A stretch of 64,000 nt of DNA from a virus (UHGV-0236300), one strand, 5' to 3'. Numbered from the stretch's first letter, positions 13,047-41,828 are shown. Numbers and translations: made by a program. The notes: generated by a model from the sequence alone, not told the origin.

Positions 13047-13331
13047 ATGGTAGTAGAACCAACAAAAACATTTACCTCCATGACTATCCCTGTCATTATG
13101 CAGGTAGAGTGCGTTCAGGTGTCCCAAGTGTGGCCCGGTACTAAAATTCCAACAGGGCCTGATTTCTTTCAGGTCGGCAAAGTGTATAATGTCTGGAAGG
13201 CACCGGATTGTTACCCTTTCATTAAAGATGACCGTGGAATGTTATGGTATCTGGGGAATGATTTGACACTGCATCTTGGAAATGCTATTATTGCAGTGTT
13301 CCGGCTCAACAAGAAGGAGACAGATCAATGA
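13047..13331 (+). CDS. hypothetical protein
   Basis: ORF with SD GAGAGGAG upstream. Confidence 0.5.
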   Translation: MVVEPTKTFTSMTIPVIMQVECVQVSQVWPGTKIPTGPDFFQVGKVYNVWKAPDCYPFIKDDRGMLWYLGNDLTLHLGNAIIAVFRLNKKETDQ

Positions 13332-13555
13332 CAACTTTGGTTAAAGCTACGTTTGTAGAAGAAAAGATGACAGACCTGTCATTCTTTGAAGAAGGTAAGG
13401 TCTACAAGGTTTATTACGATAAGGATCGCAGGAACAATATGATCGAAGACGAGGACGGTATCTCCTGGTATATCTCCCATCTGTCAAATGGTGAGTATCA
13501 TATCTATGGGACCACCCTACTTGCCAAGTTTGCAGTTGTTGAAGAGGATCTATGA
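13328..13555 (+). CDS. hypothetical protein
   Basis: ORF with start overlapping the upstream stop (ATGA coupling). Confidence 0.5.
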   Translation: MTTLVKATFVEEKMTDLSFFEEGKVYKVYYDKDRRNNMIEDEDGISWYISHLSNGEYHIYGTTLLAKFAVVEEDL

Positions 13556-14204: not shown

Positions 14205-14459
14205 ATGCAAATCACTTTGAAGCCAGAATGCGTTGCAAATGACCGAGCTTTTAAAGATTGCACACTCGGTGCAATTTATGAAGCAGAATTTTGTGAGAAC
14301 CCTCTGGTAAAAGCCCTTCTGGAAGAAGGAACCTATTTATCACAAGAAGAGCTTGATGAGTTGGAAAACTCGGCCCAGTGTCTTACCTTTAAAGATGATG
14401 AAGGGGATTCTGTCTGGTGCACTGTTAACGAAGTAGTTTTTGTAAAACCTGAGCATTAA
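14205..14459 (+). CDS. hypothetical protein
   Basis: ORF with SD GGAG upstream. Confidence 0.55.
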   Translation: MQITLKPECVANDRAFKDCTLGAIYEAEFCENPLVKALLEEGTYLSQEELDELENSAQCLTFKDDEGDSVWCTVNEVVFVKPEH

Positions 14460-14462
14460 TAC

Positions 14463-14491
14463 TTGACAATAGAGATGGGGTCTAATATAAT
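14463..14491 (+). promoter_or_regulatory. sigma70 promoter, perfect consensus TTGACA-N17-TATAAT
   Basis: Exact -35 and -10 hexamers with 17-nt spacer, upstream of gene 14523. Confidence 0.6.
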
Positions 14492-14522
14492 GGCCCTATC
14501 AAAACGAAAGGAGACCACAGCA

Positions 14523-14795
14523 ATGACCAAACAATATCAACGAATTAAAGCCAAGGTTAAGCCAGACTATCTGGAGAAGGACTCTGCTTTTCGGGACTGC
14601 ACAGCAGACAAAATTTACACAGGGGCCGTCCTGCTAAACGATGAATTTGAAGTGGATGTGCTAGGTAAGGAGGCTACTATCAAGGATGACCAGGGGGATT
14701 ATGTTTGTTGCACCACCAGAGAGCTGGAGGTATTAGAATACTTCGGTGAAATCTTCACCTCTCTTGATGATTACTTAGATGACGAGGAAGCGTGA
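14523..14795 (+). CDS. hypothetical protein
   Basis: Track ORF 14463..14795; ATG 14523 with SD AAAGGAG, downstream of the consensus promoter. Confidence 0.5.
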   Translation: MTKQYQRIKAKVKPDYLEKDSAFRDCTADKIYTGAVLLNDEFEVDVLGKEATIKDDQGDYVCCTTRELEVLEYFGEIFTSLDDYLDDEEA

Positions 14796-27068: not shown

Positions 27069-27526
27069 CTGCTCTTCTCCTACCATAAACGGCCCTACCT
27101 GGCAAGTGGAATAATTGACTAGCCATCAATCCCACATACTGTACAAATATACATGGAAAATAACTATTGCATAATCTTTCATTGTGTGGTAGCAGGGCCA
27201 TTTTTACCCGTTTTCTCTCCCAAAAGTGCACGTAATGCCGCTATTGCACAAATTTTAACCTGATGCACATCTCCAATATCTTGTCAACAACTAAAAATCT
27301 TTATAAGTCATACACTTACACAGCATCGAAAGCGTGTTCTACGCGAAAAATCGAGTATAACTATAGCCGCCAGATCTCAGAATTCACGTACGCACGCCAT
27401 TCTATAGTCTGCAAAGTATTTATTCCAACCACAGAATAACGGAATAGTCAATACCTGCATAAAATAATTATTCGTGTAAACTGCATAACATAAATCAGCT
27501 CAGGTGTCAACATTTTTCGTAAACAG

Positions 27527-28322
27527 TTCGAAATTGTCACGATAAGTTATTATACACAGAGAAATCTTTAGTCGTCTAATGTTTACTGTACATTACTATA
27601 CTGACTGGAATCATTAGATGACTAAGAGAAAGATAAGAAATAATTAATAATGTAATTGTTTTACCTGTAACAATAAGGCAACTATGCAAACGAATGGCAT
27701 GGCGCGACGGAGTCGCGACATAATATAAAAGCAGTAACAATCACCCCCGTGATAGTTTTTCTGCAATCTATTATTCAGATCATAGTTGCCTTGTATTTAG
27801 TTAATCATGACATAACAAGCAAGGCAACTATAGATCTTCTAATAGTTGCCCTGCTTTTATATTATGTCATAGATTGTTATCTTGTTAATTGTTTTCATGC
27901 AAACGAATGTCATGGCTTATCATCTCTGTGTAAACAATTTGGGCGTAAACTATTCAGATGAAAACTATTCAGGCGTAAACAGTCTATGCGTAAACAGTGA
28001 GATATGGAATAGTAACAGCCGTTATTGTGTCATATTGTGTCATTGTGTCAAAGGTAAAAGTGTCAAAAGTGACAATTTTGTCACATTGTGTCAGACAAGT
28101 TTTTCTCCTCTTTGTCAAGTGCCGCATGAAAAATTTACAAACTGGTATGGTAGCATTTTTGCGGCCCTGTTTACATTCAGGAATGTATGTATAATCCTTG
28201 CTGTGTGGGCGTTTAGACGTCTGGACGGTCAGAAGTCAGCAGGTCAATATCTAATCTATTGGTTGCTAACTATATCCCACACAAATAGTAAGAAATATAA
28301 TTGTTATGTGCGTAAACAGTAA
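27527..28322. repeat. iteron-like repeats (core GCGTAAACAGT) in a noncoding region
   Basis: (T/G)CGTAAACAGT at ~27527, ~27974, ~27988, ~28310; GCGTAAACT at ~27944; AAGGCAACTAT and its reverse complement recur at ~27673, ~27783, ~27821, ~27843. Confidence 0.55.
28025..28120. repeat. array of TTGTGTCA-type short repeats
   Basis: TTGTGTCAT x2, TTGTGTCAA, GTGTCAAAAGTGACA, TTGTCACA, TTGTGTCAG, TTGTCAAG within ~95 bp. Confidence 0.55.
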
Positions 28323-28622
28323 CTCATGTTATCAATCCCTGTATGTATCGCCAGTGGTGCGCATAATGGGTATTATGTTAAATTGCCCGTAATGATAACC
28401 ATTCTCACAATGATAGGTATTCTCATTCATCCCCACAAGATAGATTGCAAATGTTGTGCCACTGTGTGAACGGCCTCACCTATTAATTTGCCTCACTGCC
28501 TCGATATTTGAGAATTATTATAAAAAATGAGAAGTATTCCCATTCCGTCCGCCTGGCAGCACTCCTGTAGGACAAGCACAACATCGGGGTATAACTGGAC
28601 CTGTTCAGATATTTCTGGCTGA

Positions 28623-29162
28623 CTCTTCAGGCCTGTGTGGGAAAAGCCAACCTCTCCGGCGGCGGGGAGGGGGGTCAATTAAAAAATTTACGTGGTGTAT
28701 GAAGCGCTCTTCAGGCAAGGTGTGTATTATGGGATGAAACCCTCTTCAGGTGATGATATTTGTGGGGGGATATTTGCTGGAAAGCCAGATATGACGGGGC
28801 TCCCGGCGGGGATGGGGTAGTACAGACAGGGAAAATGTGGGGATGTGGTGGGAGTAAATTGATCAAGTAGGTAGGATATGGAATATGTTACAAGTATGTT
28901 AAATATAGAGGTAGGATATTTGTGAGATTTGTGTGTAAAATCAAAGACTTAGGTGGTGTTGTGGTATTTTCTATAAATAATTCAAGTTTAATAGGTGATA
29001 TTTGTCTCCATCCACTTTGTGTGGTAAACAGCTCCTAATTGAATTGGTTTACAAGTGTATATAAAGTATACAAATTAAAGATATAAGAAACCCCCCTCCC
29101 CCTTCGGCTACCATTCACCTTTTCCTCTGACTGGTACTTAAACACTTATTCAGACTCTTCAG
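28623..29162. repeat. dispersed 9-mer CTCTTCAGG (4 copies here, 5th at ~29814)
   Basis: Exact 9-mer at ~28623, ~28707, ~28742, ~29154 and ~29814; about 0.5 copies expected by chance in 64 kb. Confidence 0.55.
28664..29101. repeat. 12-bp G-rich inverted repeat pair (GGGGAGGGGGGT / ACCCCCCTCCCC) flanking a GT-skewed segment
   Basis: Perfect reverse complements at ~28664-28675 and ~29090-29101; the intervening plus strand is almost devoid of C and holds G-runs. Confidence 0.5.
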
Positions 29163-29526
29163 GTTATCACCCCTATACTATATGGCAGTGACTGGTGTCC
29201 TCCGGCCCCTCTTTCGCCACCCGTCCGCTTCGCCATGCTAATGCCATAGCCAAAGGTTCGGTTGTTCACCCTGTTCACTCAGGTGTATCTCCATACCCCT
29301 TCAAACCGAAGAGAACAGAAAACCCGAATTACTCGGTAAAAGAAAAGAGAAGAACTTAATTTTATCAAGATAGGCAAGAATGTCAAGGGATGACTGCTCA
29401 CTAAACAAGCAAACAGTCATGTGTGGTAGGTAAGTAACTGGGTTGGTAGGAAATTTAGTTGGAAGATGTTATAGGTGCCTCCAGAACCTTAGCTGGGCAG
29501 CTAAACCTGCAAAGCAGACTTGTGTG

Positions 29527-30048: not shown

Positions 30049-30546
30049 GTTCCACCCGTGAGTATTCCGGCAACATGTTTAAAAAATAAGACTTTATCAA
30101 CATATGGCCGGAACGTGTCGATGCCATAAGCATATTCCTGCAACAGCCGCTATGGACGTAATGATCATCAGGATCACCACTAAAACCTCTGACAATGTTT
30201 TCATTGTGTATTCCATATTATCCAAACAATGTGTGGATACTATCACAGGGGCGGTAATGTGTCAACAGAAGCGCCGCGAGGGTTTGGTTAAAATCCGAGC
30301 GTATGGTGATTTGGGTCAAAACGGGCGTGCGTTCTCGCTACGCTCGAAATAGAGAGTTGTTTGTAGGATGACTTTAAACGCTCTGTAAGGAGATTAATTG
30401 TCTAAGGTATGGAATCGTGCACCAGATAAAGAAAAGGACGCCACAGAGCGTCCTAGGTGCCTTAAATTTGATATTTTGCTATACCCATGAGGGCTTGTCT
30501 AGGTTGGAGTAACTGAAGGGGGTCAAAAGGTGACTGTCAAAATCTT

Positions 30547-30789
30547 TCAAACTGTCCAAGTCTTTTCCTCGTCCTGACACCATCTGTGCCTGCATTTATT
30601 GTTGTAGTGCATGGAATGCATAGCGTTCTGCAACTTAATAGGTACAAGTGATTCAGGAGTAGATAGAATTGTTGGGTATGCCAGGACTATCTCGAACAAT
30701 GGAAACACATCGAAACTGAAGTCTATTTCTGCTGAGGTTGCTGGCATATAGGAGTATTTAGCTGTCGTTGTAGACATAATCCACCTCAC
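30547..30789 (-). CDS. hypothetical protein
   Basis: ORF coupled to the upstream gene. Confidence 0.45.
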   Translation of the reverse strand: MRWIMSTTTAKYSYMPATSAEIDFSFDVFPLFEIVLAYPTILSTPESLVPIKLQNAMHSMHYNNKCRHRWCQDEEKTWTV

Positions 30790-32258: not shown

Positions 32259-32546
32259 TCATAGCGTCTCTAAAATTTCATACCCTTCGGGTCGGAAAAC
32301 AAGCCACTCAGGTGCTCCATTTGGTCGATACGCTTTATACAGAACAACCTGATCTCGGCACATACACATTGCTACATAGTTTTCATCCACACCTGCAGCC
32401 TGCATTGCATCTTCTTCTCCGGCAACCGCTTTGCTTACAACTTCCTTGGTAGGCAGGTGGGCGATCAGCTCGTCACCATCGTTAATTCCAAAATGGCTGA
32501 GTTCTCCATTGGTGTCTTTAATCTTGATCTTAACCAAATCTTTCAT
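32259..32546 (-). CDS. hypothetical protein
   Basis: ORF coupled to the upstream gene. Confidence 0.5.
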   Translation of the reverse strand: MKDLVKIKIKDTNGELSHFGINDGDELIAHLPTKEVVSKAVAGEEDAMQAAGVDENYVAMCMCRDQVVLYKAYRPNGAPEWLVFRPEGYEILETL

Positions 32547-32875
32547 TAGTCTTCCCCCAAGTTCAAAGGTCCTAAGATTTCATATGCCAGATTAGAAGTT
32601 ACCAGGGGATCTTCTGCATCTTTAGTATTATACCACCCGTGAATAACCAGAGTCCCACTTTTCTTCATGTCTAACTGGAACTGTTCTGCCGTTTCCTCAT
32701 CCACCTCCAAGATCTCCATGAGGTATTTGATGTTAGGAAGGTATGCAGCTGTTACAGTCCCCTCTACCCGGCCTTCAGGCCAACCTACATCCGGATGACA
32801 AGTAGGGACCAGAGAGGTCAGCTTGATAGTGTATGCTTTTTCTGCACGAGCCTTCAGTAACGGATCAATCTTCAT
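32546..32875 (-). CDS. hypothetical protein
   Basis: ORF coupled to the upstream gene. Confidence 0.5.
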   Translation of the reverse strand: MKIDPLLKARAEKAYTIKLTSLVPTCHPDVGWPEGRVEGTVTAAYLPNIKYLMEILEVDEETAEQFQLDMKKSGTLVIHGWYNTKDAEDPLVTSNLAYEILGPLNLGED

Positions 32876-33225
32876 TATTCTTCCTCCTCTTCGGTGCCTG
32901 CTTCCAGTAGTAAGTTAAGAACATCTTCAGCAGAAGGTTCGTAGAACTCTTGGCCTTCGTTGTCGATGATGCGATAGTCATCACCACGAATAATCAGAGG
33001 ATCGTCATCAAAACCTTCAAGACCTTTAACAACGACAACACGGTCGATTGCCATCATTGTAAGAACTTTATCGACATCTTCCTCTGCTACACCATACTGC
33101 AGCAGAATGTCTTTGGTAGGAGGGACAGCATCCACCACAACACCGTTACTAAAACCTTCCGGAAGTTTAGCTAAAATATCTTCCGGAACCACATTCATAT
33201 CAAAACCTGTGATCTCTACTTTCAT
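32875..33225 (-). CDS. hypothetical acidic protein (paralog family B)
   Basis: Similarity by eye to 33226..33486 and 34651..34920; poly-Glu C-terminus. Confidence 0.55.
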   Translation of the reverse strand: MKVEITGFDMNVVPEDILAKLPEGFSNGVVVDAVPPTKDILLQYGVAEEDVDKVLTMMAIDRVVVVKGLEGFDDDPLIIRGDDYRIIDNEGQEFYEPSAEDVLNLLLEAGTEEEEE

Positions 33226-33486
33226 TTACAGCACCTCTTCGTCAACTACTTCATAAAAATGGCTAGGGATTGCAATAGCGTTCTCACCTTCACCTACAAA
33301 CACAGTCCCGTCAAGGATCAACATCATAAGAATGTCTGTAATATCCTCCTCCGGAACGTTGCCAAAACCTTTAATCAACTTATATGTCGGGACATTCGCC
33401 TCTAGGATGTCGCCATCTTTAGAACGGAAATCCACACCTTCCTGAATCTCTGCCATTTCAAGGTTTTTCAATCTAATCTTCATCAA
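33226..33486 (-). CDS. hypothetical acidic protein (paralog family B)
   Basis: Shares an MKI/MKV start and an YEVV(D/E)EE-type C-terminus with 34651..34920. Confidence 0.55.
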   Translation of the reverse strand: MMKIRLKNLEMAEIQEGVDFRSKDGDILEANVPTYKLIKGFGNVPEEDITDILMMLILDGTVFVGEGENAIAIPSHFYEVVDEEVL

Positions 33487-33515
33487 TCAGTCTCCTGTCT
33501 TGTTAAGATGAAGGT

Positions 33516-33544
33516 ATTATTGCACACAGGGTTGGTGTTGTCAA
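33516..33544 (-). promoter_or_regulatory. candidate sigma70 promoter (minus strand) overlapped by a 15-bp palindrome
   Basis: Minus-strand TTGACA at 33544-33539 with an AATAAT/TAATAC -10 candidate; perfect palindrome GGTGTTG-T-CAACACC (33534-33548) covers the -35. Confidence 0.35.
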
Positions 33545-33562
33545 CACCTGTGTGGCATAAAA

Positions 33563-33958
33563 TTACTGAAACAGTGCAGATAAATTACCTTCTGGTGGGA
33601 ACTTATCTGCCAGGAATGGGGTTAGAACAGTGGCCTTCTGAAGATCTGGGGTCCACTCGTTGTTCAGAACATCCCAGTAATACGCAATGTTGCTATGTGG
33701 GTGCCGCATTACGAACTTTTTCCCTTCGTAGTCAGTTGAAACCTCTACAGAAGAAATAACAACAGAATCTTCAAGGGTTTCTTCATAGAAAGATCCACCC
33801 TCAAATTTCCAACGAGATGCAAGAGCTCCTGCCTTGAACGCTGCAGATAACGGACTGTCTGCAAGAACATACATTTCTTGCACTCTGTCACTGCGATCTT
33901 TGCTTCTTACGTTGTATACAGTATCCGAGCTATACTCAACACGGTATAGACTTACCAT
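33563..33958 (-). CDS. hypothetical protein (paralog family C)
   Basis: Paralogous to 35766..36164 (HP(D/H)S...YW...WTP motif). Confidence 0.55.
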   Translation of the reverse strand: MVSLYRVEYSSDTVYNVRSKDRSDRVQEMYVLADSPLSAAFKAGALASRWKFEGGSFYEETLEDSVVISSVEVSTDYEGKKFVMRHPHSNIAYYWDVLNNEWTPDLQKATVLTPFLADKFPPEGNLSALFQ

Positions 33959-34317
33959 TACCGAGCCTCCTCAATAACTTCCACATCTGAACCCACCACA
34001 AATGCAAAAGGGCAGGTTTCATGAAAGATATCCGGATCTCCACCAAGCTTGCTAACTATCTCTCCACCACTAATAAACACAAGCTCACCAATATTCATCA
34101 GATTGCTAAAATAGTAGCCATAATGATTGAAGAATGCAGCTGGGTCAGGTAGACTGGTGGCCTCAAGCTCTACATTGCTTGAGATCACTTTCTTATCATA
34201 CCCTCTCGCCTTTTGAGATGCAAGATCTGCAGAGTCTTCAGGAGACCGGAGATGCACAGGAATTGTTTCACCAATAAAGCGTACTTTCATATTCTTACCC
34301 CACAACCATAGCTTCAA
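33958..34317 (-). CDS. hypothetical protein (possible family A relative)
   Basis: C-terminal FVVGSDVEVIEE resembles family A tails; start may be an internal ATG. Confidence 0.5.
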   Translation of the reverse strand: MKLWLWGKNMKVRFIGETIPVHLRSPEDSADLASQKARGYDKKVISSNVELEATSLPDPAAFFNHYGYYFSNLMNIGELVFISGGEIVSKLGGDPDIFHETCPFAFVVGSDVEVIEEAR

Positions 34318-34558
34318 AAGGTGTCATAAACGAATAAACAGCATCATCATCTGCTTCAGGGAATGCCCCCAAAGACTTTATGTCTGATCCCTTGACAAAT
34401 ACAAGGTTTTGATCAAAAGCTTCTTGTGGATCAATCCGATACATATCTCGTAGGATACCACTTACCTCCTCATCAAGAGGCGAGTATGCTGTGCACGTTT
34501 TTCCAATCAAGCTTTGAGAATCAGGGTATCCACCTGAAGTTTTAAAATAAACAATCAT
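34295..34558 (-). CDS. hypothetical protein (paralog family A)
   Basis: LVFVKGSDIKSLGAFPE resembles VFILGSDLIAAGAPE of 36177..36431. Confidence 0.5.
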   Translation of the reverse strand: MIVYFKTSGGYPDSQSLIGKTCTAYSPLDEEVSGILRDMYRIDPQEAFDQNLVFVKGSDIKSLGAFPEADDDAVYSFMTPFEAMVVG

Positions 34559-34650
34559 ATAGTATCACCTCTGGTAAGAGATGGGGATTCCTTTCCCACA
34601 AATAATTACAAACCTTTCTTGTCGAGGAAAGTATGCTAACCCAAGTAGGA

Positions 34651-34920
34651 TTACTCTTCTACAACCTCATACACATCCGGAGTTACAATCAACTCTTCTC
34701 CGTTACCTGGTGCAACAAACACTACCAAACCTTCCGGTGTGTGCTTTTTAGCCATCTCGATGACATCTTCTCGCAGAGCTGGCTCCATCAGATCAAAACC
34801 TTCACCCAGAGCATCACGAACCACCTTCATGTAGTCAACTGGTTGTGCTTCAACGATCATGCCTTCAACCAGTCCACAGTTTTTGTCTGCCAGCTCAGTT
34901 TGGAATAATTTAATTTTCAT
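34651..34920 (-). CDS. hypothetical acidic protein (paralog family B)
   Basis: MKIKL start and YEVVEE end shared with family B. Confidence 0.55.
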   Translation of the reverse strand: MKIKLFQTELADKNCGLVEGMIVEAQPVDYMKVVRDALGEGFDLMEPALREDVIEMAKKHTPEGLVVFVAPGNGEELIVTPDVYEVVEE

Positions 34921-35063
34921 TTAGAGGTCTCCTCAATTATTTGATATTAATAGCCGTAACCTAACACATTAACTACAACTGCGATTGCAAACATAATTTC
35001 AAAGCATGCAATCTCTACATTTGGGACTAATTTCTTAATCATGCCCATTGTAGCACCTCAATC

Positions 35064-35375
35064 TCAAAAGTCAATCTTTACTTTACCTTTTCCCTTACCT
35101 TTCTTTCCACCGCATTTAGCCAACTGGCGTGCTGCAACATCCACCATACGGTCAGTTGCCTCGTAAGCATCGCTACCTTTAGCTTTGGCGATAACTTCTT
35201 TCCCAGAATTGTCAAAAATGAAAGCCATAACTTCCTGGTGATCATTTTCAACTTTTACACTCACACGTGCATAGTTGGCAGAGGGGTGCAAACGCTCCAG
35301 CTTGGACATTTTGTGGGAAATGAAAGACACCATACCTTCAGTGATCTCTACGTTGCCAGTGATTTCAATCTGCAT
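35064..35375 (-). CDS. hpf: ribosome hibernation promoting factor / RaiA-like protein
   Basis: MQIEITGNVEITEGM...VSVKVEN...AKAKGSDAYEATDRMVDVAARQLAK parallels E. coli HPF MQLNITGNNVEITEAL...; basic C-terminal tail. Confidence 0.8.
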   Translation of the reverse strand: MQIEITGNVEITEGMVSFISHKMSKLERLHPSANYARVSVKVENDHQEVMAFIFDNSGKEVIAKAKGSDAYEATDRMVDVAARQLAKCGGKKGKGKGKVKIDF

Positions 35376-35422
35376 AACGTGCTCCTTTTAAAGAAGAGGG
35401 AACCAAACCCTCTTTGAAAATA

Positions 35423-35451
35423 ATGATACTAAAGATCAAATGTTGTGTCAA
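35423..35451 (-). promoter_or_regulatory. hpf: sigma70 promoter (minus strand, TTGACA-N17-TATCAT) with a 5'-UTR hairpin
   Basis: Minus-strand TTGACA at 35451-35446, TATCAT at 35428-35423; hairpin AGAGGG-N7-CCCTCT (35395-35413) then SD AAGGAG before the hpf ATG. Confidence 0.5.
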
Positions 35452-35457
35452 CAGTTT

Positions 35458-35748
35458 TTACAGCTTGTCGTCGATAGTTTTTAAAATATCCACTGCAAGA
35501 TCTGCCATTTTACGAACATACTCTGCAAACTCAACAGGATCCTTGATCAATGAGTTCACAGGGTCATACCCTAAAGCGTTTAAAATGGCTACAGCATCCA
35601 CAACCTTCTCATCATTTGCGAAGATCTCACCGTCAAACTTGTAAGTCCATTTTGAGTCAATCTTGGCATGGCAGGATTGGTCCATGCTTATTACACCATC
35701 TTTTTTAAACGATTCGGTGTTATCAGTATCCAAAACTAAATCCATCAT
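35458..35748 (-). CDS. hypothetical protein
   Basis: ORF; no motif. Confidence 0.5.
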   Translation of the reverse strand: MMDLVLDTDNTESFKKDGVISMDQSCHAKIDSKWTYKFDGEIFANDEKVVDAVAILNALGYDPVNSLIKDPVEFAEYVRKMADLAVDILKTIDDKL

Positions 35749-35765
35749 GTAAGTACCCCACTATT

Positions 35766-36164
35766 TCAGCTTATCTTTTCTTCAACAACCCCGTAGCTCG
35801 GGGCAGAGTCAAGAGCTTTCTGGTTTAAAAGTGGTGTAGCAGAATCTGCAAACGGTGTCCAGGTTTTTGTTCTGGCATTCCAGTAATGCTTTACTCTGGA
35901 ATCTGGATGCACTATAACAAAAACTTTTTCACTTGTCAACACATTAATTTCTTCTACACCCTTGCTGATAATCTCTCCGTCATAGCCACCAGTCTGGTAT
36001 CCTTCGTACCAGGTTCTTGCATAGGCATAGCCAGCCTGCCAGCATGCAGCCTCCTCCGAGGTGGAGACTACGTAGAAGTCTTTCTCAAATTCGGGGATAC
36101 GCCCTTGCTTTACGCTCCAAGCTCCGCGAATTTTCATTGTAACTTTGAACAGTTTATTTTTCAC
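35766..36164 (-). CDS. hypothetical protein (paralog family C)
   Basis: Paralogous to 33563..33958. Confidence 0.55.
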   Translation of the reverse strand: MKNKLFKVTMKIRGAWSVKQGRIPEFEKDFYVVSTSEEAACWQAGYAYARTWYEGYQTGGYDGEIISKGVEEINVLTSEKVFVIVHPDSRVKHYWNARTKTWTPFADSATPLLNQKALDSAPSYGVVEEKIS

Positions 36165-36176
36165 AACAGTTCCCCA

Positions 36177-36431
36177 TCACAGCTCTAAAATATCTGCATC
36201 TGACCCTGTCCCAAAGGCATAATACGAGTCCTCTCCGAAATAATATTCCGGGGCACCAGCCGCGATCAGGTCTGATCCCAAGATGAACACCACATTGTGG
36301 CCTACATGGCTGTGATTTTGCCGCACAGGATCGTCCCACGGCAACCCTTCGAAGTATACAGCAGGTACTACCTTTCCTTTCAGGAAGGATTGTCCCAAGT
36401 AGACGTTAGAGTCAAGAATTTTAACCTTCAT
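36177..36431 (-). CDS. hypothetical protein (paralog family A)
   Basis: MKVKILD... and GSDLIAAGAPE shared with 36421..36645 and 40069..40302. Confidence 0.55.
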   Translation of the reverse strand: MKVKILDSNVYLGQSFLKGKVVPAVYFEGLPWDDPVRQNHSHVGHNVVFILGSDLIAAGAPEYYFGEDSYYAFGTGSDADILEL

Positions 36432-36645
36432 GATCGTCCTCCACTATCTCCACATCCTCTCCTAGGGCAAAGTTGTAGGTCCACTGACTGTCAAAGCATT
36501 CCTGGGATGCACCAGCGGCAATAAGATCTGCACCTTTTATTTTTAAAAGGTCAGGATAATCTTCGTTAGGGATAGCGGTAAACACTTTCCCCACTAAGGG
36601 CTCCTGACCAATATAGAAGCTTGAATCTAAAACTTTAACTTTCAT
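36421..36645 (-). CDS. hypothetical protein (paralog family A)
   Basis: MKVKVLD... and GADLIAAGAS motif. Confidence 0.55.
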   Translation of the reverse strand: MKVKVLDSSFYIGQEPLVGKVFTAIPNEDYPDLLKIKGADLIAAGASQECFDSQWTYNFALGEDVEIVEDDHEG

Positions 36646-36929
36646 CAGCGGTCTCCATCGGGCGGTTGTGGAACGTAAACACTGTTACGAATCTCGTCAG
36701 CAGTATAGTAACAAGTTTTCCCCTCTCTGTCTCTGGCAGCAATGTATTCAGCTATACCAATAAGTGCCATAGCCTTGGTTGCGTATCTCTTAAGCTCGTT
36801 AGCTCCCCAGCAAAATCTCTGCCAAAACGGTATGAAACCGAATAGGTACACTTTCTGTTTCACTATCCAATAAGTTCCTTTACAGATCACTTTAAACTCT
36901 GCAGCACTATTGCTAACACCATTGCTCAT
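36645..36929 (-). CDS. hypothetical protein
   Basis: ORF coupled to its neighbours. Confidence 0.45.
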   Translation of the reverse strand: MSNGVSNSAAEFKVICKGTYWIVKQKVYLFGFIPFWQRFCWGANELKRYATKAMALIGIAEYIAARDREGKTCYYTADEIRNSVYVPQPPDGDR

Positions 36930-36941
36930 TATCTTCTCCTT

Positions 36942-37226
36942 TTATTTTTCTGGATTTGGCAGATATTGCACATTGGCAGGAGGAACACCGGATAGCTCCC
37001 AAACAACCATAGTGCTGTACCCTGGCACACTTCTAACATTTAAAAGAGTAGGAGCACCAACACATTTAAACTTCCTTTTCCCAAATCCGTTCTCCATCAT
37101 AACCCAGTATCCGGTATCCTGATCACCGGGAATTTGTGTTCCATCATCGTCCACCCAGCGGACGGTCCATTTCGATACAGCAACAGCCTGGTATTTAAAC
37201 TTTTTAAACCACTCGAACAGTTTCAT
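36942..37226 (-). CDS. hypothetical protein
   Basis: ORF; no motif. Confidence 0.45.
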   Translation of the reverse strand: MKLFEWFKKFKYQAVAVSKWTVRWVDDDGTQIPGDQDTGYWVMMENGFGKRKFKCVGAPTLLNVRSVPGYSTMVVWELSGVPPANVQYLPNPEK

Positions 37227-37321
37227 AATTCAGCCTCGCATAGCCATAATAACTATAAACAGACAAAGAATGAATCCGAATGCCACGCCACCCATAAACG
37301 TTAATATTGATGCGACCATAA

Positions 37322-37507
37322 TCAATCAGCCTCGTTTGGCAGCTCTTCCATTTTGACATACCGGAAAGTGTTGCCGTAATAGTTGATCCATGACATCAGC
37401 TCACTTTCTTGCTCTTCCTCTGGGATGGACTCTCGAACGCTGACAAGTTTTAAGAAAACCCAATCACAATCCACCCCCATCCTACCAGACAGACAATAGT
37501 GCTTCAT
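37322..37507 (-). CDS. hypothetical protein
   Basis: Short ORF. Confidence 0.4.
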   Translation of the reverse strand: MKHYCLSGRMGVDCDWVFLKLVSVRESIPEEEQESELMSWINYYGNTFRYVKMEELPNEAD

Positions 37508-37525
37508 AAAACCCTCCCGCCTGGT

Positions 37526-37720
37526 TTAGAATACTGCTTCTTCCATTGCACCTGAGAGCAACAAAGAGGTAATCTGGCTAACATTCATCTCAGACTCCAC
37601 TTCCTCCCCTTTGAAAGGTTCGCGGCAGAATAGGACTGTTTCAGGATTTTTACTTCGAACAATATAATACAAATCATTCAAAGTGTTGTAGTAATAAGTG
37701 TTAAAACGTAAGTTTTTCAT
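37526..37720 (-). CDS. hypothetical protein
   Basis: Short ORF. Confidence 0.4.
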   Translation of the reverse strand: MKNLRFNTYYYNTLNDLYYIVRSKNPETVLFCREPFKGEEVESEMNVSQITSLLLSGAMEEAVF

Positions 37721-38004
37721 TTTCTAGTCCCCTTTTTAGATTTTTGTGCAGAAACGCTTTCTGCAATACGAGACAGGCGTTCTTCTGAAGCTTTACCTAC
37801 TCCAGGTTTCTTGAGCGGGCTATCTTTATGACCGCAATCCAATTGGATGCTAGATACATCCCCAACCTTGTAAGTCAATTCTAGCAAAAGGTTGTCGTCC
37901 TTGTCAAATGTTTTTACGATAAATTTTTTATCGTCCTCCTTAACTTCATATCTAGTACCTGCAGTGTACAGCATGGTGCCATCAGCGTAGGATATCCAGA
38001 TCAT
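37717..38004 (-). CDS. hypothetical protein
   Basis: ORF coupled to its neighbours. Confidence 0.45.
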   Translation of the reverse strand: MIWISYADGTMLYTAGTRYEVKEDDKKFIVKTFDKDDNLLLELTYKVGDVSSIQLDCGHKDSPLKKPGVGKASEERLSRIAESVSAQKSKKGTRK

Positions 38005-38321
38005 TGCACCTCCTTCTGCTGCAACAGCATCAACTCTTTGTTGGAAATCTTTACTGCTGTCTTTATTGTCCCATCTTCACGGAACCACGACCAGAATTCT
38101 ACAGTGTCACCACTATCAAGCAAGGCATGACCATGGTAAAAATCTTTGTCCTTAGACAGTTTCTCATCTATATCTGCATCGACACATTCGTGATCCATAG
38201 CATTCTGCCTGAATGCATCGGTTATGCCAATGCACGCCTTACTCTCAAGGCTGGTATACCCAATATCTTTTAATTCAGTTCCCAAGTCCAGTATCCTACA
38301 AAAGCTACAACAGCCACCCAC
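38001..38321 (-). CDS. hypothetical protein
   Basis: ORF with GTG start per track; start uncertain; a 26-codon hydrophobic mini-ORF overlaps the 5' end. Confidence 0.4.
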   Translation of the reverse strand: MGGCCSFCRILDLGTELKDIGYTSLESKACIGITDAFRQNAMDHECVDADIDEKLSKDKDFYHGHALLDSGDTVEFWSWFREDGTIKTAVKISNKELMLLQQKEVQ

Positions 38322-38407
38322 ATTAATATCGATTTAATCTTTGACATTCTCTCTACCTCTTTCTTAGTTTATTTAATTATGGCACATCCTTTGTGCCATA
38401 ATGCACA

Positions 38408-38869
38408 TTACTTAAACAACAGTTCAAAATAGTGCAAAATTAACAGAAGTTGAATTACGCCTAGCACAACGGCGAGTATGTTGATCTTAGAATCAAAAAA
38501 CTTCTTAACTTTTACCCTAAAAGGCTCCTTAATGTCCTTTACGATCCTATTTATAGATGATTTCATATCCCTGATTACCATCCTAAACATTAGGGACGGA
38601 TCTTCCTTCTCTGTAACGGAATCGAAAACATACTCTCTTCGGTCATAAGGACCTCCAGATCTGCGTATTAACCTCTCCACAGATACCTCGTACGACACAC
38701 CTGTAACGTAATCATCTATGACAAGTAGTGACGGATCTTTATCGTCCAAAGGTATTAAAGTTATCTTTCCAGATTTTGTTAAAATTTCTCCTTTTTCAAG
38801 CAGTGTGTACCAATGCTCTCTACCAAGGTTGTTGAGGCACGTTTTTACATATTTAACAAACATCGTCAC
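38408..38869 (-). CDS. hypothetical protein with C-terminal hydrophobic helix
   Basis: C-terminal ILAVVLGVIQLLLILHYF. Confidence 0.5.
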   Translation of the reverse strand: MTMFVKYVKTCLNNLGREHWYTLLEKGEILTKSGKITLIPLDDKDPSLLVIDDYVTGVSYEVSVERLIRRSGGPYDRREYVFDSVTEKEDPSLMFRMVIRDMKSSINRIVKDIKEPFRVKVKKFFDSKINILAVVLGVIQLLLILHYFELLFK

Positions 38870-39069
38870 CCCTCATCGCACGTCTGATATAGCCATTCTA
38901 TGAAATCTTGATACCACTCTCCCTCTGAGCGCTCCGTAGGCCAATAATCTTCCCCCTCTCTTGCATTAAAATCTGAGTATTCAACTTTCCACTCCTTTAC
39001 CAGCTCGTGGAGAAGGTTTTCAGCCTGTTCTAAGGATTTATTTTTTGTCATTACTGTCCCCTTTTTCAA
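38866..39069 (-). CDS. hypothetical protein
   Basis: Short ORF; likelier start at internal ATG (MTKNKSL) after SD AAAAGGGGA. Confidence 0.45.
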   Translation of the reverse strand: MKKGTVMTKNKSLEQAENLLHELVKEWKVEYSDFNAREGEDYWPTERSEGEWYQDFIEWLYQTCDEG

Positions 39070-39271
39070 GATAATTATACATCAGCGCCGCACCACCCAA
39101 AATGGCTACCAGCAGTAATACCCCAGAGAGCATTTCAATAAACATGGCTTGAAACATTAGAAGGCCCCCTCTAATTTCACGCACCATTTTAAATACATAT
39201 TCTTTTCCCATAAAGGTGCCCGGCTAAGATCTGTGTAGAACGCAATCTCTTTAAGAACAGTATAAACAGTT

Positions 39272-39508
39272 TTAGGTGCGGTATCCATCCCTACTCTCCT
39301 TTTTCTCCTTACGGGTATTCTTGTAGTAATCAACCAGACACATTATTACGATGAAGACAACCACAGGCCAAAAAGGTGCAGCAGTGATGATGGTGATAAA
39401 ATCATCAAACTTCACCCTTCGTGTAGACACGATGCATATACCTGTCAAGATTACTGCTGTTATAACAGCTACTACTAGGTAACCTATTAGCACAGCATTT
39501 ATACTCAT
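39272..39508 (-). CDS. small two-TM membrane protein with charged C-terminal tail (holin-like topology)
   Basis: Two hydrophobic segments (LIGYLVVAVITAVILTGICIV; ITAAPFWPVVVFIVIMCLV) and a Lys/Arg/Glu-rich C-terminus. Confidence 0.45.
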   Translation of the reverse strand: MSINAVLIGYLVVAVITAVILTGICIVSTRRVKFDDFITIITAAPFWPVVVFIVIMCLVDYYKNTRKEKKESRDGYRT

Positions 39509-39526
39509 TGGCTCCTCCTTCGTAGG

Positions 39527-40072
39527 TTAAATTGTGCACTTCAGGTGGTTGTCGATGGTGTCAAGAAAATTATCCCGTTCTTTCTCAGAGTTTTCACGGA
39601 TGTAGCTGAAAAACATATCTAGAATAACCTTATTGATATATTCCAACTCCTCTGTGTTCAAGTACTTAGCAGGATCTACAATGACATCCCAAGTATCATA
39701 CAGACCGCACTCATGATACCCCCAACGCCGCTCAATTGTCAAACTGATCGGCAAATCTTTACCGTCACAAACAACCCTCCATCTACAGATACTGGTATCT
39801 GGGCGTACCTGTGCACGGTATACCTGTACAAAATCCAATTTGAATTTGAGGTACTCGTCATACAATTTAAGCACAAAGCTCTCGATTTGTGGAGACACTT
39901 TTGCAGCAAACTGTGCGTATTTGTACTTGCACTGGATGATCTTTCTGCGTTTTGCAGTTAAATTTTTTGCAGCCAGTTGTTCTTCAGTGTACCTCCACCT
40001 ACGATCAACAAACGCAACAGGGTCTTTGTCCCCATAGAGGTCTTCCCAGTTAATCAGAAGCATACCTGTCAC
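39527..40072 (-). CDS. hypothetical protein
   Basis: ORF; no motif. Confidence 0.55.
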   Translation of the reverse strand: MTGMLLINWEDLYGDKDPVAFVDRRWRYTEEQLAAKNLTAKRRKIIQCKYKYAQFAAKVSPQIESFVLKLYDEYLKFKLDFVQVYRAQVRPDTSICRWRVVCDGKDLPISLTIERRWGYHECGLYDTWDVIVDPAKYLNTEELEYINKVILDMFFSYIRENSEKERDNFLDTIDNHLKCTI

Positions 40073-40302
40073 TCCTCCACAACTTCAAGGCCTTTACCGC
40101 CTCGCTCTGGCAGATTGCCTAAAGATAGGTAATACGTATAATCAGGAGAGATCCTACCAGACTCTGCACCTGCAGCTAGTAAATATTTTCCCTTAACCAT
40201 GACAACATTATCGTTTGCAGATAGCCGTTTTGCTTCCACAATTTTACCAACGCAGTCAACCAAGGAAGGGTACCCTAAATCTGTAAGAAATTTAACTTTC
40301 AT
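40069..40302 (-). CDS. hypothetical protein (paralog family A)
   Basis: MKVKFLTD... and KYLLAAGAESG resemble family A. Confidence 0.55.
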   Translation of the reverse strand: MKVKFLTDLGYPSLVDCVGKIVEAKRLSANDNVVMVKGKYLLAAGAESGRISPDYTYYLSLGNLPERGGKGLEVVEE

Positions 40303-40341
40303 GCTACCTCCTACTTCTACCGTCCCTGGTAAGATAAATTA

Positions 40342-40740
40342 TTACTGAACAGAGCGCGGAGCTGGGAAGGATAACTCTTCTAAAGAGAATATTTCATTTC
40401 CCACAATCCATGTTGCCGGATCATCCGGGTTGACTGGATAGATAATCATCACCTCATCAGTGTTACATACCCGCTTTTTACCTGTGGAGTTATCAGCAAC
40501 TAGCATGCGAGGCTCTTCAGAGATACACAGGTATCCGCCACGTCCAACTGTCCCTTCTACAGGGTCCTGACCTTTTATTACGATGAATATCTTCTCTCCT
40601 GAGGTGATATTACCTTGCACACTTACCGTTTGACCAACCTTGGATGTACCAATCTTAGTGACTTCGAACATTACATCACGGATAACTGTTGCATAGTTAC
40701 CAGAGACTTTCTTACCTTCTTCAGTAATCTCAATCTTCAT
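40342..40740 (-). CDS. hypothetical protein
   Basis: ORF; no motif. Confidence 0.55.
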   Translation of the reverse strand: MKIEITEEGKKVSGNYATVIRDVMFEVTKIGTSKVGQTVSVQGNITSGEKIFIVIKGQDPVEGTVGRGGYLCISEEPRMLVADNSTGKKRVCNTDEVMIIYPVNPDDPATWIVGNEIFSLEELSFPAPRSVQ

Positions 40741-41013: not shown

Positions 41014-41298
41014 CTACCAGGTCACTGTCAAGTAGGCAACTGTGTTATTTTTCTCCGGGGAGATGCCAACAACATCCACCCGCAGACCTCCTGCCCTCAA
41101 ATCCCCAACGATGTGTGGGAAGTAGTCTGAGAGGTGTGATGGAAGATTTATCGAAAATCCGCATCCCAGAAAGCCTGCTAACGCCTTATTTTGTATCTCC
41201 CCTACAATCGCATCATAAATGGAGTTAAGCTCGTCAGGGAGAGTTACAGGACGTTTTAGCGCTAACTGGTGCAACTTGTCCTTAGCACTCATTTTCAT
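41014..41298 (-). CDS. hypothetical protein
   Basis: Track ORF 41014..41367; likelier start is the internal ATG forming an ATGA overlap with the MTase stop. Confidence 0.45.
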   Translation of the reverse strand: MKMSAKDKLHQLALKRPVTLPDELNSIYDAIVGEIQNKALAGFLGCGFSINLPSHLSDYFPHIVGDLRAGGLRVDVVGISPEKNNTVAYLTVTW

Positions 41299-41828
41299 TT
41301 CAAGTCTGCCTCCGGAGGTGCCAACCACATAAATGGTGGTAGGTCTAAACGGTTCTTCTTGTCCCACACAAAATATGCATATGCTTGCCCGTCAGTTCTG
41401 CCATTAGATTGGAATGATGGACGCTTAGATATTGTGATCACAGTGGTAGGGGCATTATCAAGCCACCATTCAAATCTGGCCTTGCTTTCCAGAAAATTAA
41501 GACGCAAAAGCATAATAACTACGTCAGCATCTTTCAACGCCTTGTCCACAAACTCACGAGCCAGGCTGTACGGCGGGTTGGTGATAATACAGTCAACATG
41601 GTTGTATTCCGTATTCAGATAGTCAACACCTTCTTGGATTTCTCCCCATGCAGATCCTAACGGCATACGGGAGTAGAATACACCTGAGGCGCTATTCCTG
41701 CAAGGCTCCAAATAGGTCCAATCTTCTGGGAACGGAATGAGGTTATACAACCCTTCTGCACACCACTCTGGTGTCACATATTCATCATAGGCGTTACGTT
41801 GTTCGTCAGGTTTTCTAGCACAAGTCAT
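41295..41828 (-). CDS. small DNA N6-adenine methyltransferase (phage Dam-like)
   Basis: Catalytic motif IV ITNPPYS; small size (177 aa) as in phage T1-type Dam proteins. Confidence 0.6.
   Translation of the reverse strand: MTCARKPDEQRNAYDEYVTPEWCAEGLYNLIPFPEDWTYLEPCRNSASGVFYSRMPLGSAWGEIQEGVDYLNTEYNHVDCIITNPPYSLAREFVDKALKDADVVIMLLRLNFLESKARFEWWLDNAPTTVITISKRPSFQSNGRTDGQAYAYFVWDKKNRLDLPPFMWLAPPEADLK

Follow-up and report, generated by a model that had tools for sequence, protein, structure and literature searches.

Three families of small proteins in a Vequintavirus accessory block, with a possible part in host-specific counter-defence

The 64,000-nucleotide stretch of viral DNA analysed here (UHGV-0236300; hereafter the window, meaning the stretch at its full length) carries a block of small predicted genes on its minus strand, and the question it raises is whether these genes are copies of a few ancestors and what role so many of them might have in infection. 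The first-pass annotation had proposed three paralogous families of small acidic proteins, A, B and C, which matched no named family and whose tandem expansion was thought typical of host-takeover or anti-restriction loci. Every open reading frame (ORF) that it named lies on the minus strand where it had been placed, and the motifs that it quoted are present. Pairwise and profile alignments support all three families, family B at the profile level, and the picture of a tandem expansion of small, mostly acidic proteins stands. We read the region as a Vequintavirus accessory block in which three unrelated families of small cytoplasmic proteins have been multiplied by local duplication and which serves in part for host-specific counter-defence, a reading to which we would give about an even chance of being right. 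Expanded sets of small phage accessory proteins, likely to act in host interaction, are of a well-known kind. Few E. coli phages are isolated more often than the rV5-like ones, which are candidates for therapy and whose genes mostly have no known function.

The twelve genes are given below, and each is referred to in the text by its lower coordinate. Profile-profile matches are reported as hhalign probabilities (Prob).

36421-36645, minus strand: family A core, 74 residues; phrog_5009 E 2e-38, modelled as an SH3-like beta-barrel
36177-36431, minus strand: family A core, 84 residues, with a loop insertion relative to 36421; BLASTP E 4e-13 to 36421, phrog_5009 E 1.5e-31, hhalign Prob 100
40069-40302, minus strand: family A core, 77 residues, isoelectric point (pI) 6.2; phrog_5009 E 9e-35, hhalign Prob 99-100
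34295-34558, minus strand: divergent family A, 87 residues, orthologue bas54_0152; phrog_13920, hhalign Prob 94-96 to the A core
33958-34290, minus strand: divergent family A, 110 residues from MKVRF, with a long insertion, orthologue bas54_0151; hhalign Prob 90-93
35766-36164, minus strand: family C, 132 residues from the GTG at 36164, orthologue bas54_0157; phrog_7379 E 1e-73, matched from residue 2
33563-33958, minus strand: family C, 131 residues, orthologue bas54_0150; phrog_7379 E 4e-66, 98-100% conserved in the genus
34651-34920, minus strand: family B, 89 residues, pI 4.3, orthologue bas54_0153; hhalign to 33226 Prob 88-93 over the full length
33226-33483, minus strand: family B hub, 85 residues, pI 4.2; hhalign to 32875 Prob 95-96 and to 34651 Prob 93
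32875-33225, minus strand: family B, 116 residues, net charge -22, poly-Glu tail; hhalign to 33226 Prob 96
32546-32875, minus strand: probable family B, 109 residues, absent from the first-pass annotation; merged B profile Prob 74, E 2.7e-5
32259-32546, minus strand: family B, 95 residues, likewise absent from that annotation; hhalign to 33226 Prob 88

An all-against-all BLASTP comparison of the ORFs of the window links 40069 to 36421 (E 2.8e-5) and 33958 to 36177 (E 0.009). A Smith-Waterman shuffle test that covered 630 protein pairs agrees with the BLASTP links of families A and C, and gives a Bonferroni-corrected p of 1.5e-3 for 33958 and 36177. When alignments of orthologues were compared with hhalign, 36421, 36177 and 40069 matched one another at Prob 99-100. 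The more divergent 34295 joins this core at Prob 94-96 (E 1e-7 to 1e-8), with an insertion that separates its N- and C-terminal conserved blocks and with a weak second match to phrog_5009 (E 1.6e-4), and 33958 joins it at Prob 90-93 (E about 1e-6) through its C-terminal half only; the PHROG profile search returned no phrog_5009 match for the latter. As delimited by sequence and profile comparison, family A comprises five members (36421, 36177, 40069, 34295 and 33958), and the membership first proposed is upheld by BLASTP, PHROGs and hhalign, including 33958, which had been listed as a possible member.

The AlphaFold model of family A is an SH3-like beta-barrel with a predicted local distance difference test (pLDDT) score of 90.8. 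Its five-stranded barrel topology superposes on solved SH3, KOW or PsaE domains, and SH3-like small beta-barrels (PsaE, Spt5 KOW and eukaryotic SH3 domains) are the closest known folds to the model. An SH3-like barrel is a common protein-binding scaffold. The A core is also the most variable of the families within the genus, at 78-96% amino-acid identity.

Family C is a pair, 35766 and 33563, which find each other by BLASTP (E 4.6e-9) and hhalign (Prob 100) and share phrog_7379, as had been proposed. It is the most conserved of the three, with 97-100% amino-acid identity across the genus. Its structure model is an alpha+beta fold without an informative match; eL20/LX and PurS-like alpha+beta domains and T7 Gp2 are among the closest known systems. 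Judging from this model, family C would be a small alpha+beta protein that displays its conserved H-P-x-S...Y-W...W-T-P motif on the surface. A WW domain was considered because of the visual likeness of the motif (YW-N-x-x-T-x-T-W-T-P), and the Pfam WW profile is not matched. The BASEL annotation starts the 35766 gene at 36137 and not at the GTG at 36164. The N-terminal strand read from that GTG aligns with 33563 and with two distant relatives (P0102 and P0103), and the PHROG profile is matched from its first position; the longer form is therefore probably correct.

Those two relatives are the only new full-length ones that an exhaustive HMMER search of 1.84 billion representative sequences returned for family C. 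Matches to a 1,900-residue FN3-like repeat protein and to a 659-residue repeat protein were confined to the motif and were judged spurious, and a metagenome scan for the P0102 locus gave spurious bacterial contigs only. An IMG/VR pattern scan with family C led to four contigs of 118-140 kb (L010-L013), which represent a sister lineage of Vequintavirus and whose proteins are about 30-60% identical to, and syntenic with, those of the window. These contigs are a useful outgroup for the small genes of the block.

Family B is the most divergent case. The BLASTP comparison found no links among its genes, and PHROGs splits them five ways (phrog_11868, phrog_12359, phrog_12155, phrog_12457 and phrog_12794). 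With within-genus orthologues only, hhalign pairs 33226 with 32875 at Prob 90 and leaves 34651 at noise level; with orthologues from the sister lineage added, 33226 matches 32875 at Prob 96 (E 1e-9) and 34651 at Prob 93 (E 2e-7, end to end). The gene at 32259 matches 33226 at Prob 88, 34651 at Prob 74-80 and 32875 at Prob 69-81. For comparison, reversed-alignment decoys reached at best E 0.004-0.07 with B-family queries, and the merged B profile matches 32546 at E 2.7e-5 against a best decoy of E 0.016. For 32875 there is also an intermediate homologue (P0086 / L010:7704-7979), which ends in CYEV(V/L)EE. Family B is clear once the divergent sister-lineage orthologues make the profile matches significant; it is real at the profile level only, with five members, of which 32546 is the weakest.

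The three genes first grouped as family B (32875, 33226 and 34651) are homologous by hhalign, but the list fell short, since 32259 and probably 32546 also belong. The cue first relied on, a start of MK[IV] together with a tail of acidic residues, is not diagnostic, since unrelated neighbours have these features: 40342 begins MKIEITE, and the product of a nearby gene for the ribosome hibernation factor HPF begins MQIEITG. Four of the five B genes are consecutive (32259, 32546, 32875 and 33226, spanning 32259-33486), and 34651 stands apart. Some GenBank records label orthologues of 34651 'sigma 54 modulation factor', a name with no Pfam match at E <= 1; the true HPF is encoded at 35064-35375. 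Likewise the label 'non-specific endonuclease' on an orthologue of 33226 has no Pfam match behind it. Residues 10-55 of 33226 weakly but repeatedly resemble residues 61-108 of a Dam-like methyltransferase encoded at 41295-41828 on the minus strand (shuffle p 2e-5, hhalign Prob 36-66), a similarity that may be noise.

The three families are separate from one another as far as profiles can tell, with no A-B, A-C or B-C link (hhalign Prob < 7). A single superfamily of A and B, suggested by the shared MK[IV]K start and E-V-V-E-E tail, gave Prob <= 1.6 with merged profiles, which does not exceed the reversed decoys. Searching the window ORFs of 45 residues or more with profile hidden Markov models of the families added no member to any of them. 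No member of any family has a match in Pfam, NCBIfam or PDB sequence searches, and no recognisable catalytic motif was seen in A, B or C. The claim that the proteins belong to no named family holds for Pfam and NCBIfam names, but all the members match a PHROG end to end (E 1e-31 to 1e-73), every one of them annotated 'unknown function': phrog_5009 covers the A core, phrog_13920 and phrog_13661 the divergent A members and phrog_7379 family C.

The description of these proteins as small and acidic fits most of them, with pI 4.05-4.85, but not 40069 (pI 6.2) or 35766 (pI 5.7). Net charges, which describe bulk charge only, run from -6 to -22, and family B is the most acidic family (pI 4.05-4.7). 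About 35% of the ORFs of at least 60 residues in the window have a pI below 5. Compared with three other Vequintaviruses, all 12 genes show a ratio of nonsynonymous to synonymous substitution rates (dN/dS) of 0.02-0.26, at dS values of 0.08-1.1, which indicates that the twelve ORFs are real genes under purifying selection.

Where these families occur bears on what they might do. The whole of bases 32800-40400 of the window aligns at 98% identity with Escherichia phage vB_EcoM-ECP32, and these bases match 122 phage records, almost all of them Vequintavirus (rV5-like myophages), in whose GenBank entries nearly all genes of the block are called hypothetical. A search of 5.8 billion proteins found matches almost solely on contigs of about 135 kb that are typical of Vequintavirus. 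Seunavirus SPLA5a and Mydovirus KB57 share flanking genes with the window in the syntenic region, and phmmer found no A, B or C homologue there within 14 kb downstream of the ClpP-like protease gene. The sister lineage has one A gene (of the 40069 type), four B genes and one C gene (of the 35766 type), compared with five, five and two in the window; neither the 36421/36177 pair nor the HPF gene nor 32546 is present there, nor is any gene of the 34295-33958-33563 group. Given this gene content, the expansions of A and C look genus-specific and most of the B array looks older.

The A member retained in the sister lineage, 40069 (ortholog at L010:1578-1811), is also the one nearest to a set of prophage homologues (P0030/P0031). 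A family A homologue of 75 residues, about 40% identical to 40069, occurs in lambdoid E. coli prophages (L006-L008; for example the gene at L007:10001-10228), where it sits among small ORFs of unknown function between the antiterminator Q and holin genes. This interval is a classical moron hotspot of lambdoid prophages. Only 13 of 5,426 complete E. coli genomes carry the homologue, and the prophage loci in question have no B or C relatives nearby. Save for this rare A homologue, the families are confined to Vequintavirus and one sister lineage.

The most direct evidence on function comes from a published screen. The HIDEN-SEQ preprint reports saturating transposon mutagenesis of the closely related phage Bas54 (MaxBurger, MZ501093) (10.1101/2025.11.20.689424), and we assigned Bas54 orthologues by position and identity. 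The B run 32259, 32546, 32875 and 33226 corresponds to bas54_0146 to 0149; 33563 is 0150, 33958 is 0151, 34295 is 0152, 34651 is 0153 and the HPF gene is 0155; 35766 is 0157, 36177 is 0158, 36421 is 0159 and 40069 is 0166. On K-12 all of these orthologues are 'non-essential' except 0151 to 0153, which are 'intermediate', with insertion saturation of 0.69-1.0 (10.1101/2025.11.20.689424). On a uropathogenic isolate compared with K-12, insertions in 0150, 0151 and 0152 fall to zero reads, with log2 fold changes (log2FC) of -6.77, -6.17 and -7.16 (adjusted p 0), and those in 0157 are depleted with a log2FC of -2.14 (adjusted p 0); 0153 has a log2FC of -2.78 that is not significant, and 0146-0149, 0154-0156 and 0158-0168 are unchanged (10.1101/2025.11.20.689424). 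The orthologues of 33563, 33958, 34295 and 35766 are therefore dispensable on K-12 yet depleted on a natural isolate, as seen with one isolate in the published supplement.

A precedent for such behaviour lies close by. In the same preprint bas54_0140, which lies about 2.8 kb from the region first flagged but within one minus-strand block with it, counters the defence system DS-28 experimentally, as does bas54_0063 (10.1101/2025.11.20.689424). The product of bas54_0140 resembles those of the genes discussed here, being a small protein of the minus-strand block that is dispensable on K-12 and conditionally essential on the same isolate; it differs in that its orthologue in the window, 30547-30789, has no meaningful pairwise or profile match to A, B or C. 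That orthologue is itself interrupted: relative to MaxBurger and AlexBoehm, the window carries a one-nucleotide deletion in an A-run (GGAAAAAG to GGAAAAG), and the resulting frameshift splits the gene (30479-30789, minus strand) into ORFs 30547-30789 and 30479-30595. Either the split is genuine and the orthologue a pseudogene, or the homopolymer may have been misread in sequencing. In phage WM the 30547 orthologue, that is, the bas54_0140 orthologue, is labelled 'portal vertex protein', and bas54_0140 itself has no Pfam match.

On the host-specific accessory reading, the small proteins would act as stoichiometric binders or inhibitors of host proteins, and the various copies would each deal with another host variant or target. 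The three adjacent genes 34295 (A), 33958 (A) and 33563 (C) would be host-specific fitness factors, as would 35766 (C) to a lesser degree; all four would probably serve in counter-defence, needed on some natural E. coli and not on K-12. Family B might have the same general accessory or host-interaction role, to judge from its context. The order A-A-C occurs twice, as 36421-36177-35766 and as 34295-33958-33563, which suggests a duplicated three-gene cassette whose products may act together, and in the second copy all three genes have a phenotype on the isolate.

Several observations weigh against this reading. The A-A-C adjacency fails as proof of a module, because in the sister lineage the C gene follows two unrelated ORFs instead. 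No phenotype was seen on either host for family B, for the A core genes 36421 and 36177, or for 40069 (10.1101/2025.11.20.689424). The model of family C is moderately confident, its five versions spanning pLDDT 44 to 77. The text of the preprint does not discuss bas54_0150-0152 or 0157, and the provenance of the data in its supplementary file 10 has to be reconstructed: the sheet named 'Data S6 resampling_K-12_vs_CFE303' gives the command line and input files for sample 311, and the sheet after it carries an identical header. We read the host as CFE311, because the command line names 311 and because 0063 and 0140 are depleted in this sheet, as the paper describes for CFE311. From that isolate DS-28 and Gao_Tmn were cloned, only 0063 and 0140 were reported to pair with DS-28, and no defence system of CFE311 was matched to bas54_0150-0152 or 0157 (10.1101/2025.11.20.689424). 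The strain-specific phenotype could also reflect a difference in a host factor and not immunity, and insertions in 0151 and 0152 could be lost through local polarity on 0150; 0153, which lies further upstream, has the non-significant fall given above. As to polarity more broadly, the transposon of the T4 library has no terminator, the Bas54 library was made by the same procedure, and the authors argue against widespread polarity (10.1101/2025.11.20.689424); that insertions in 0158 and 0159, directly upstream of 0157, are not depleted is consistent with this.

A sharper version of counter-defence can be proposed tentatively, although we think it less likely than not. The group 34295-33958-33563, with 36421-36177-35766 as its older copy, would form a multi-component cassette in which two SH3-like adaptors and an alpha+beta effector act against an unidentified immune system of uropathogenic E. 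coli, and family B would be an independent inhibitor family awaiting its host. If true, this would make the cassette the source of at least one new anti-defence protein family without a known relative.

Alternatively, the proteins could be general host-takeover factors that, with the phage HPF, re-tune or shut down transcription, translation or metabolism in every host and would not counter particular immune systems. The HPF/RaiA gene does lie between the two A-A-C groups, promoters of the sigma70 type are spread through the block, and bas54_0151 to 0153 are 'intermediate' on K-12. However, every orthologue tolerates insertions on K-12, at the saturation given above, and the strong phenotype is strain-specific. 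Moreover, the sister genera have the remainder of the replication and nucleotide-metabolism arm but not these families, which would be unusual for core takeover functions, and we consider this explanation unlikely.

It is less plausible still, and in our judgement rather improbable, that these are phage-versus-phage or conditionally neutral 'moron-like' genes (for superinfection exclusion or competition, for example), with the duplications reflecting drift in a recombination hotspot and the transposon-sequencing signal a polar or regulatory effect. The prophage A homologue in the Q-holin interval, the indels in the block between close relatives and the lack of a phenotype for most members would all fit. 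Set against these are the strong purifying selection, the high conservation of family C across the genus, the depletion of two unlinked C paralogues on one host while their neighbours are unaffected, and the use of a transposon without a terminator.

As for anti-restriction, the notion that these acidic proteins, those of family B above all, imitate DNA and block restriction or other DNA-binding defences is very improbable: the B proteins are small, have the low pI noted above, include 32875 with its charge of -22 and poly-Glu tail, lie just downstream of a sigma70-like promoter and resemble Ocr and ArdA in being small, very acidic phage proteins from a host-interaction region, but the idea is weakened because Vequintavirinae are 'exceptionally susceptible' to restriction-modification systems, apparently without effective protection (BASEL, PMC8594841), because family A is confidently modelled as a beta-barrel and because family B orthologues have no phenotype on both hosts screened, and in addition no similarity to Ocr or ArdA was found in fold or in Pfam, NCBIfam and PDB sequence searches, and acidity is common among the ORFs of the window. 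The transposon data support, for some of these genes, an accessory or counter-defence role that is specific to certain hosts; the DNA mimicry suggested in the first-pass annotation is not supported.

Parts of the grouping were already in place. PHROGs has the core A trio in one family and the C pair in another, so that the A core and C groupings are implicit in it, whereas it leaves 34295 and 33958 off the A core and divides B; the unification made here comes from profile-profile comparison with sister-lineage orthologues. What is new is the unified family B, the joining of 34295 and 33958 to A, a predicted fold for A, and the tying of four genes to a host-specific transposon phenotype that had gone unremarked. 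Twelve 'hypothetical proteins' are thereby reduced to three families, one of which gains a fold, and the outcome is a short list of candidate host-range or counter-defence determinants. If confirmed, the host-specific reading would account for some of the differences between strains in how susceptible they are to rV5-like phages and could point to an uncharacterised defence in clinical E. coli.

The setting of the block is that of a genome with two convergent arms, as judged from GC skew and ORF orientation: a plus-strand arm from 1 to about 27 kb and a minus-strand arm from 64 kb down to about 29.5 kb, with an ORF-poor stretch between them. The small-protein block lies at the distal end of the minus-strand arm, and upstream of it lie genes for ribonucleotide reductase, thymidylate synthase, PhoH, a ClpP-like protease and a Dam-like methyltransferase. 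Two further features of the block are the following.

33516-33544, minus strand: sigma70-like promoter, TTGACA-17-AATAAT with an extended -10, 11/12, in the gap upstream of 33226 and the four-gene B run
35064-35375, minus strand: gene for an HPF/RaiA ribosome hibernation factor; Pfam PF02482, E 1.7e-12, scoring 48.4 bits where the gathering cut-off is 23.7

The HPF gene, which separates the two A-A-C groups, belongs to none of the three families, and the gap upstream of it also contains sigma70-like sites. Such sites (at least 10/12) follow the direction of the arms almost perfectly: of the 28 sites on the minus strand, 24 fall in 29-64 kb, and of the 31 on the plus strand, 26 fall in 1-27 kb. 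This co-orientation of promoters and genes implies dense promoters for host RNA polymerase along both arms, and the rV5 genome paper describes host-type promoters throughout that genome. We found no time-course data in the literature on the timing of Vequintavirus transcription; 'early' expression of the block, as first assumed, is plausible.

Other genes of the block vary or carry doubtful names. MaxBurger (Bas54, L009) lacks six consecutive small genes that the window has at 36942-38869 (minus strand) and that also occur in AlexBoehm, WM and Aya, so the accessory block varies by indels within the genus. The GenBank label 'putative glycosidase' for 39527 has no Pfam match behind it.

The ORF-poor region at about 27200-29500 contains clustered CGTAAAC-type direct repeats (27929-27995) and several inverted repeats (27668-27868), and no tRNA or Rfam match was found in it. 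Its equivalent in Bas54, about 2 kb long, tolerated zero transposon insertions in the HIDEN-SEQ screen (10.1101/2025.11.20.689424), and the region is possibly an origin of replication or some other cis element that the phage needs. Small adjacent paralogues also occur on the plus-strand arm, in the pairs 13047-13331 and 13328-13555 (BLASTP E 1e-4) and 14205-14459 and 14463-14795 (BLASTP E 1e-6), all on the plus strand.

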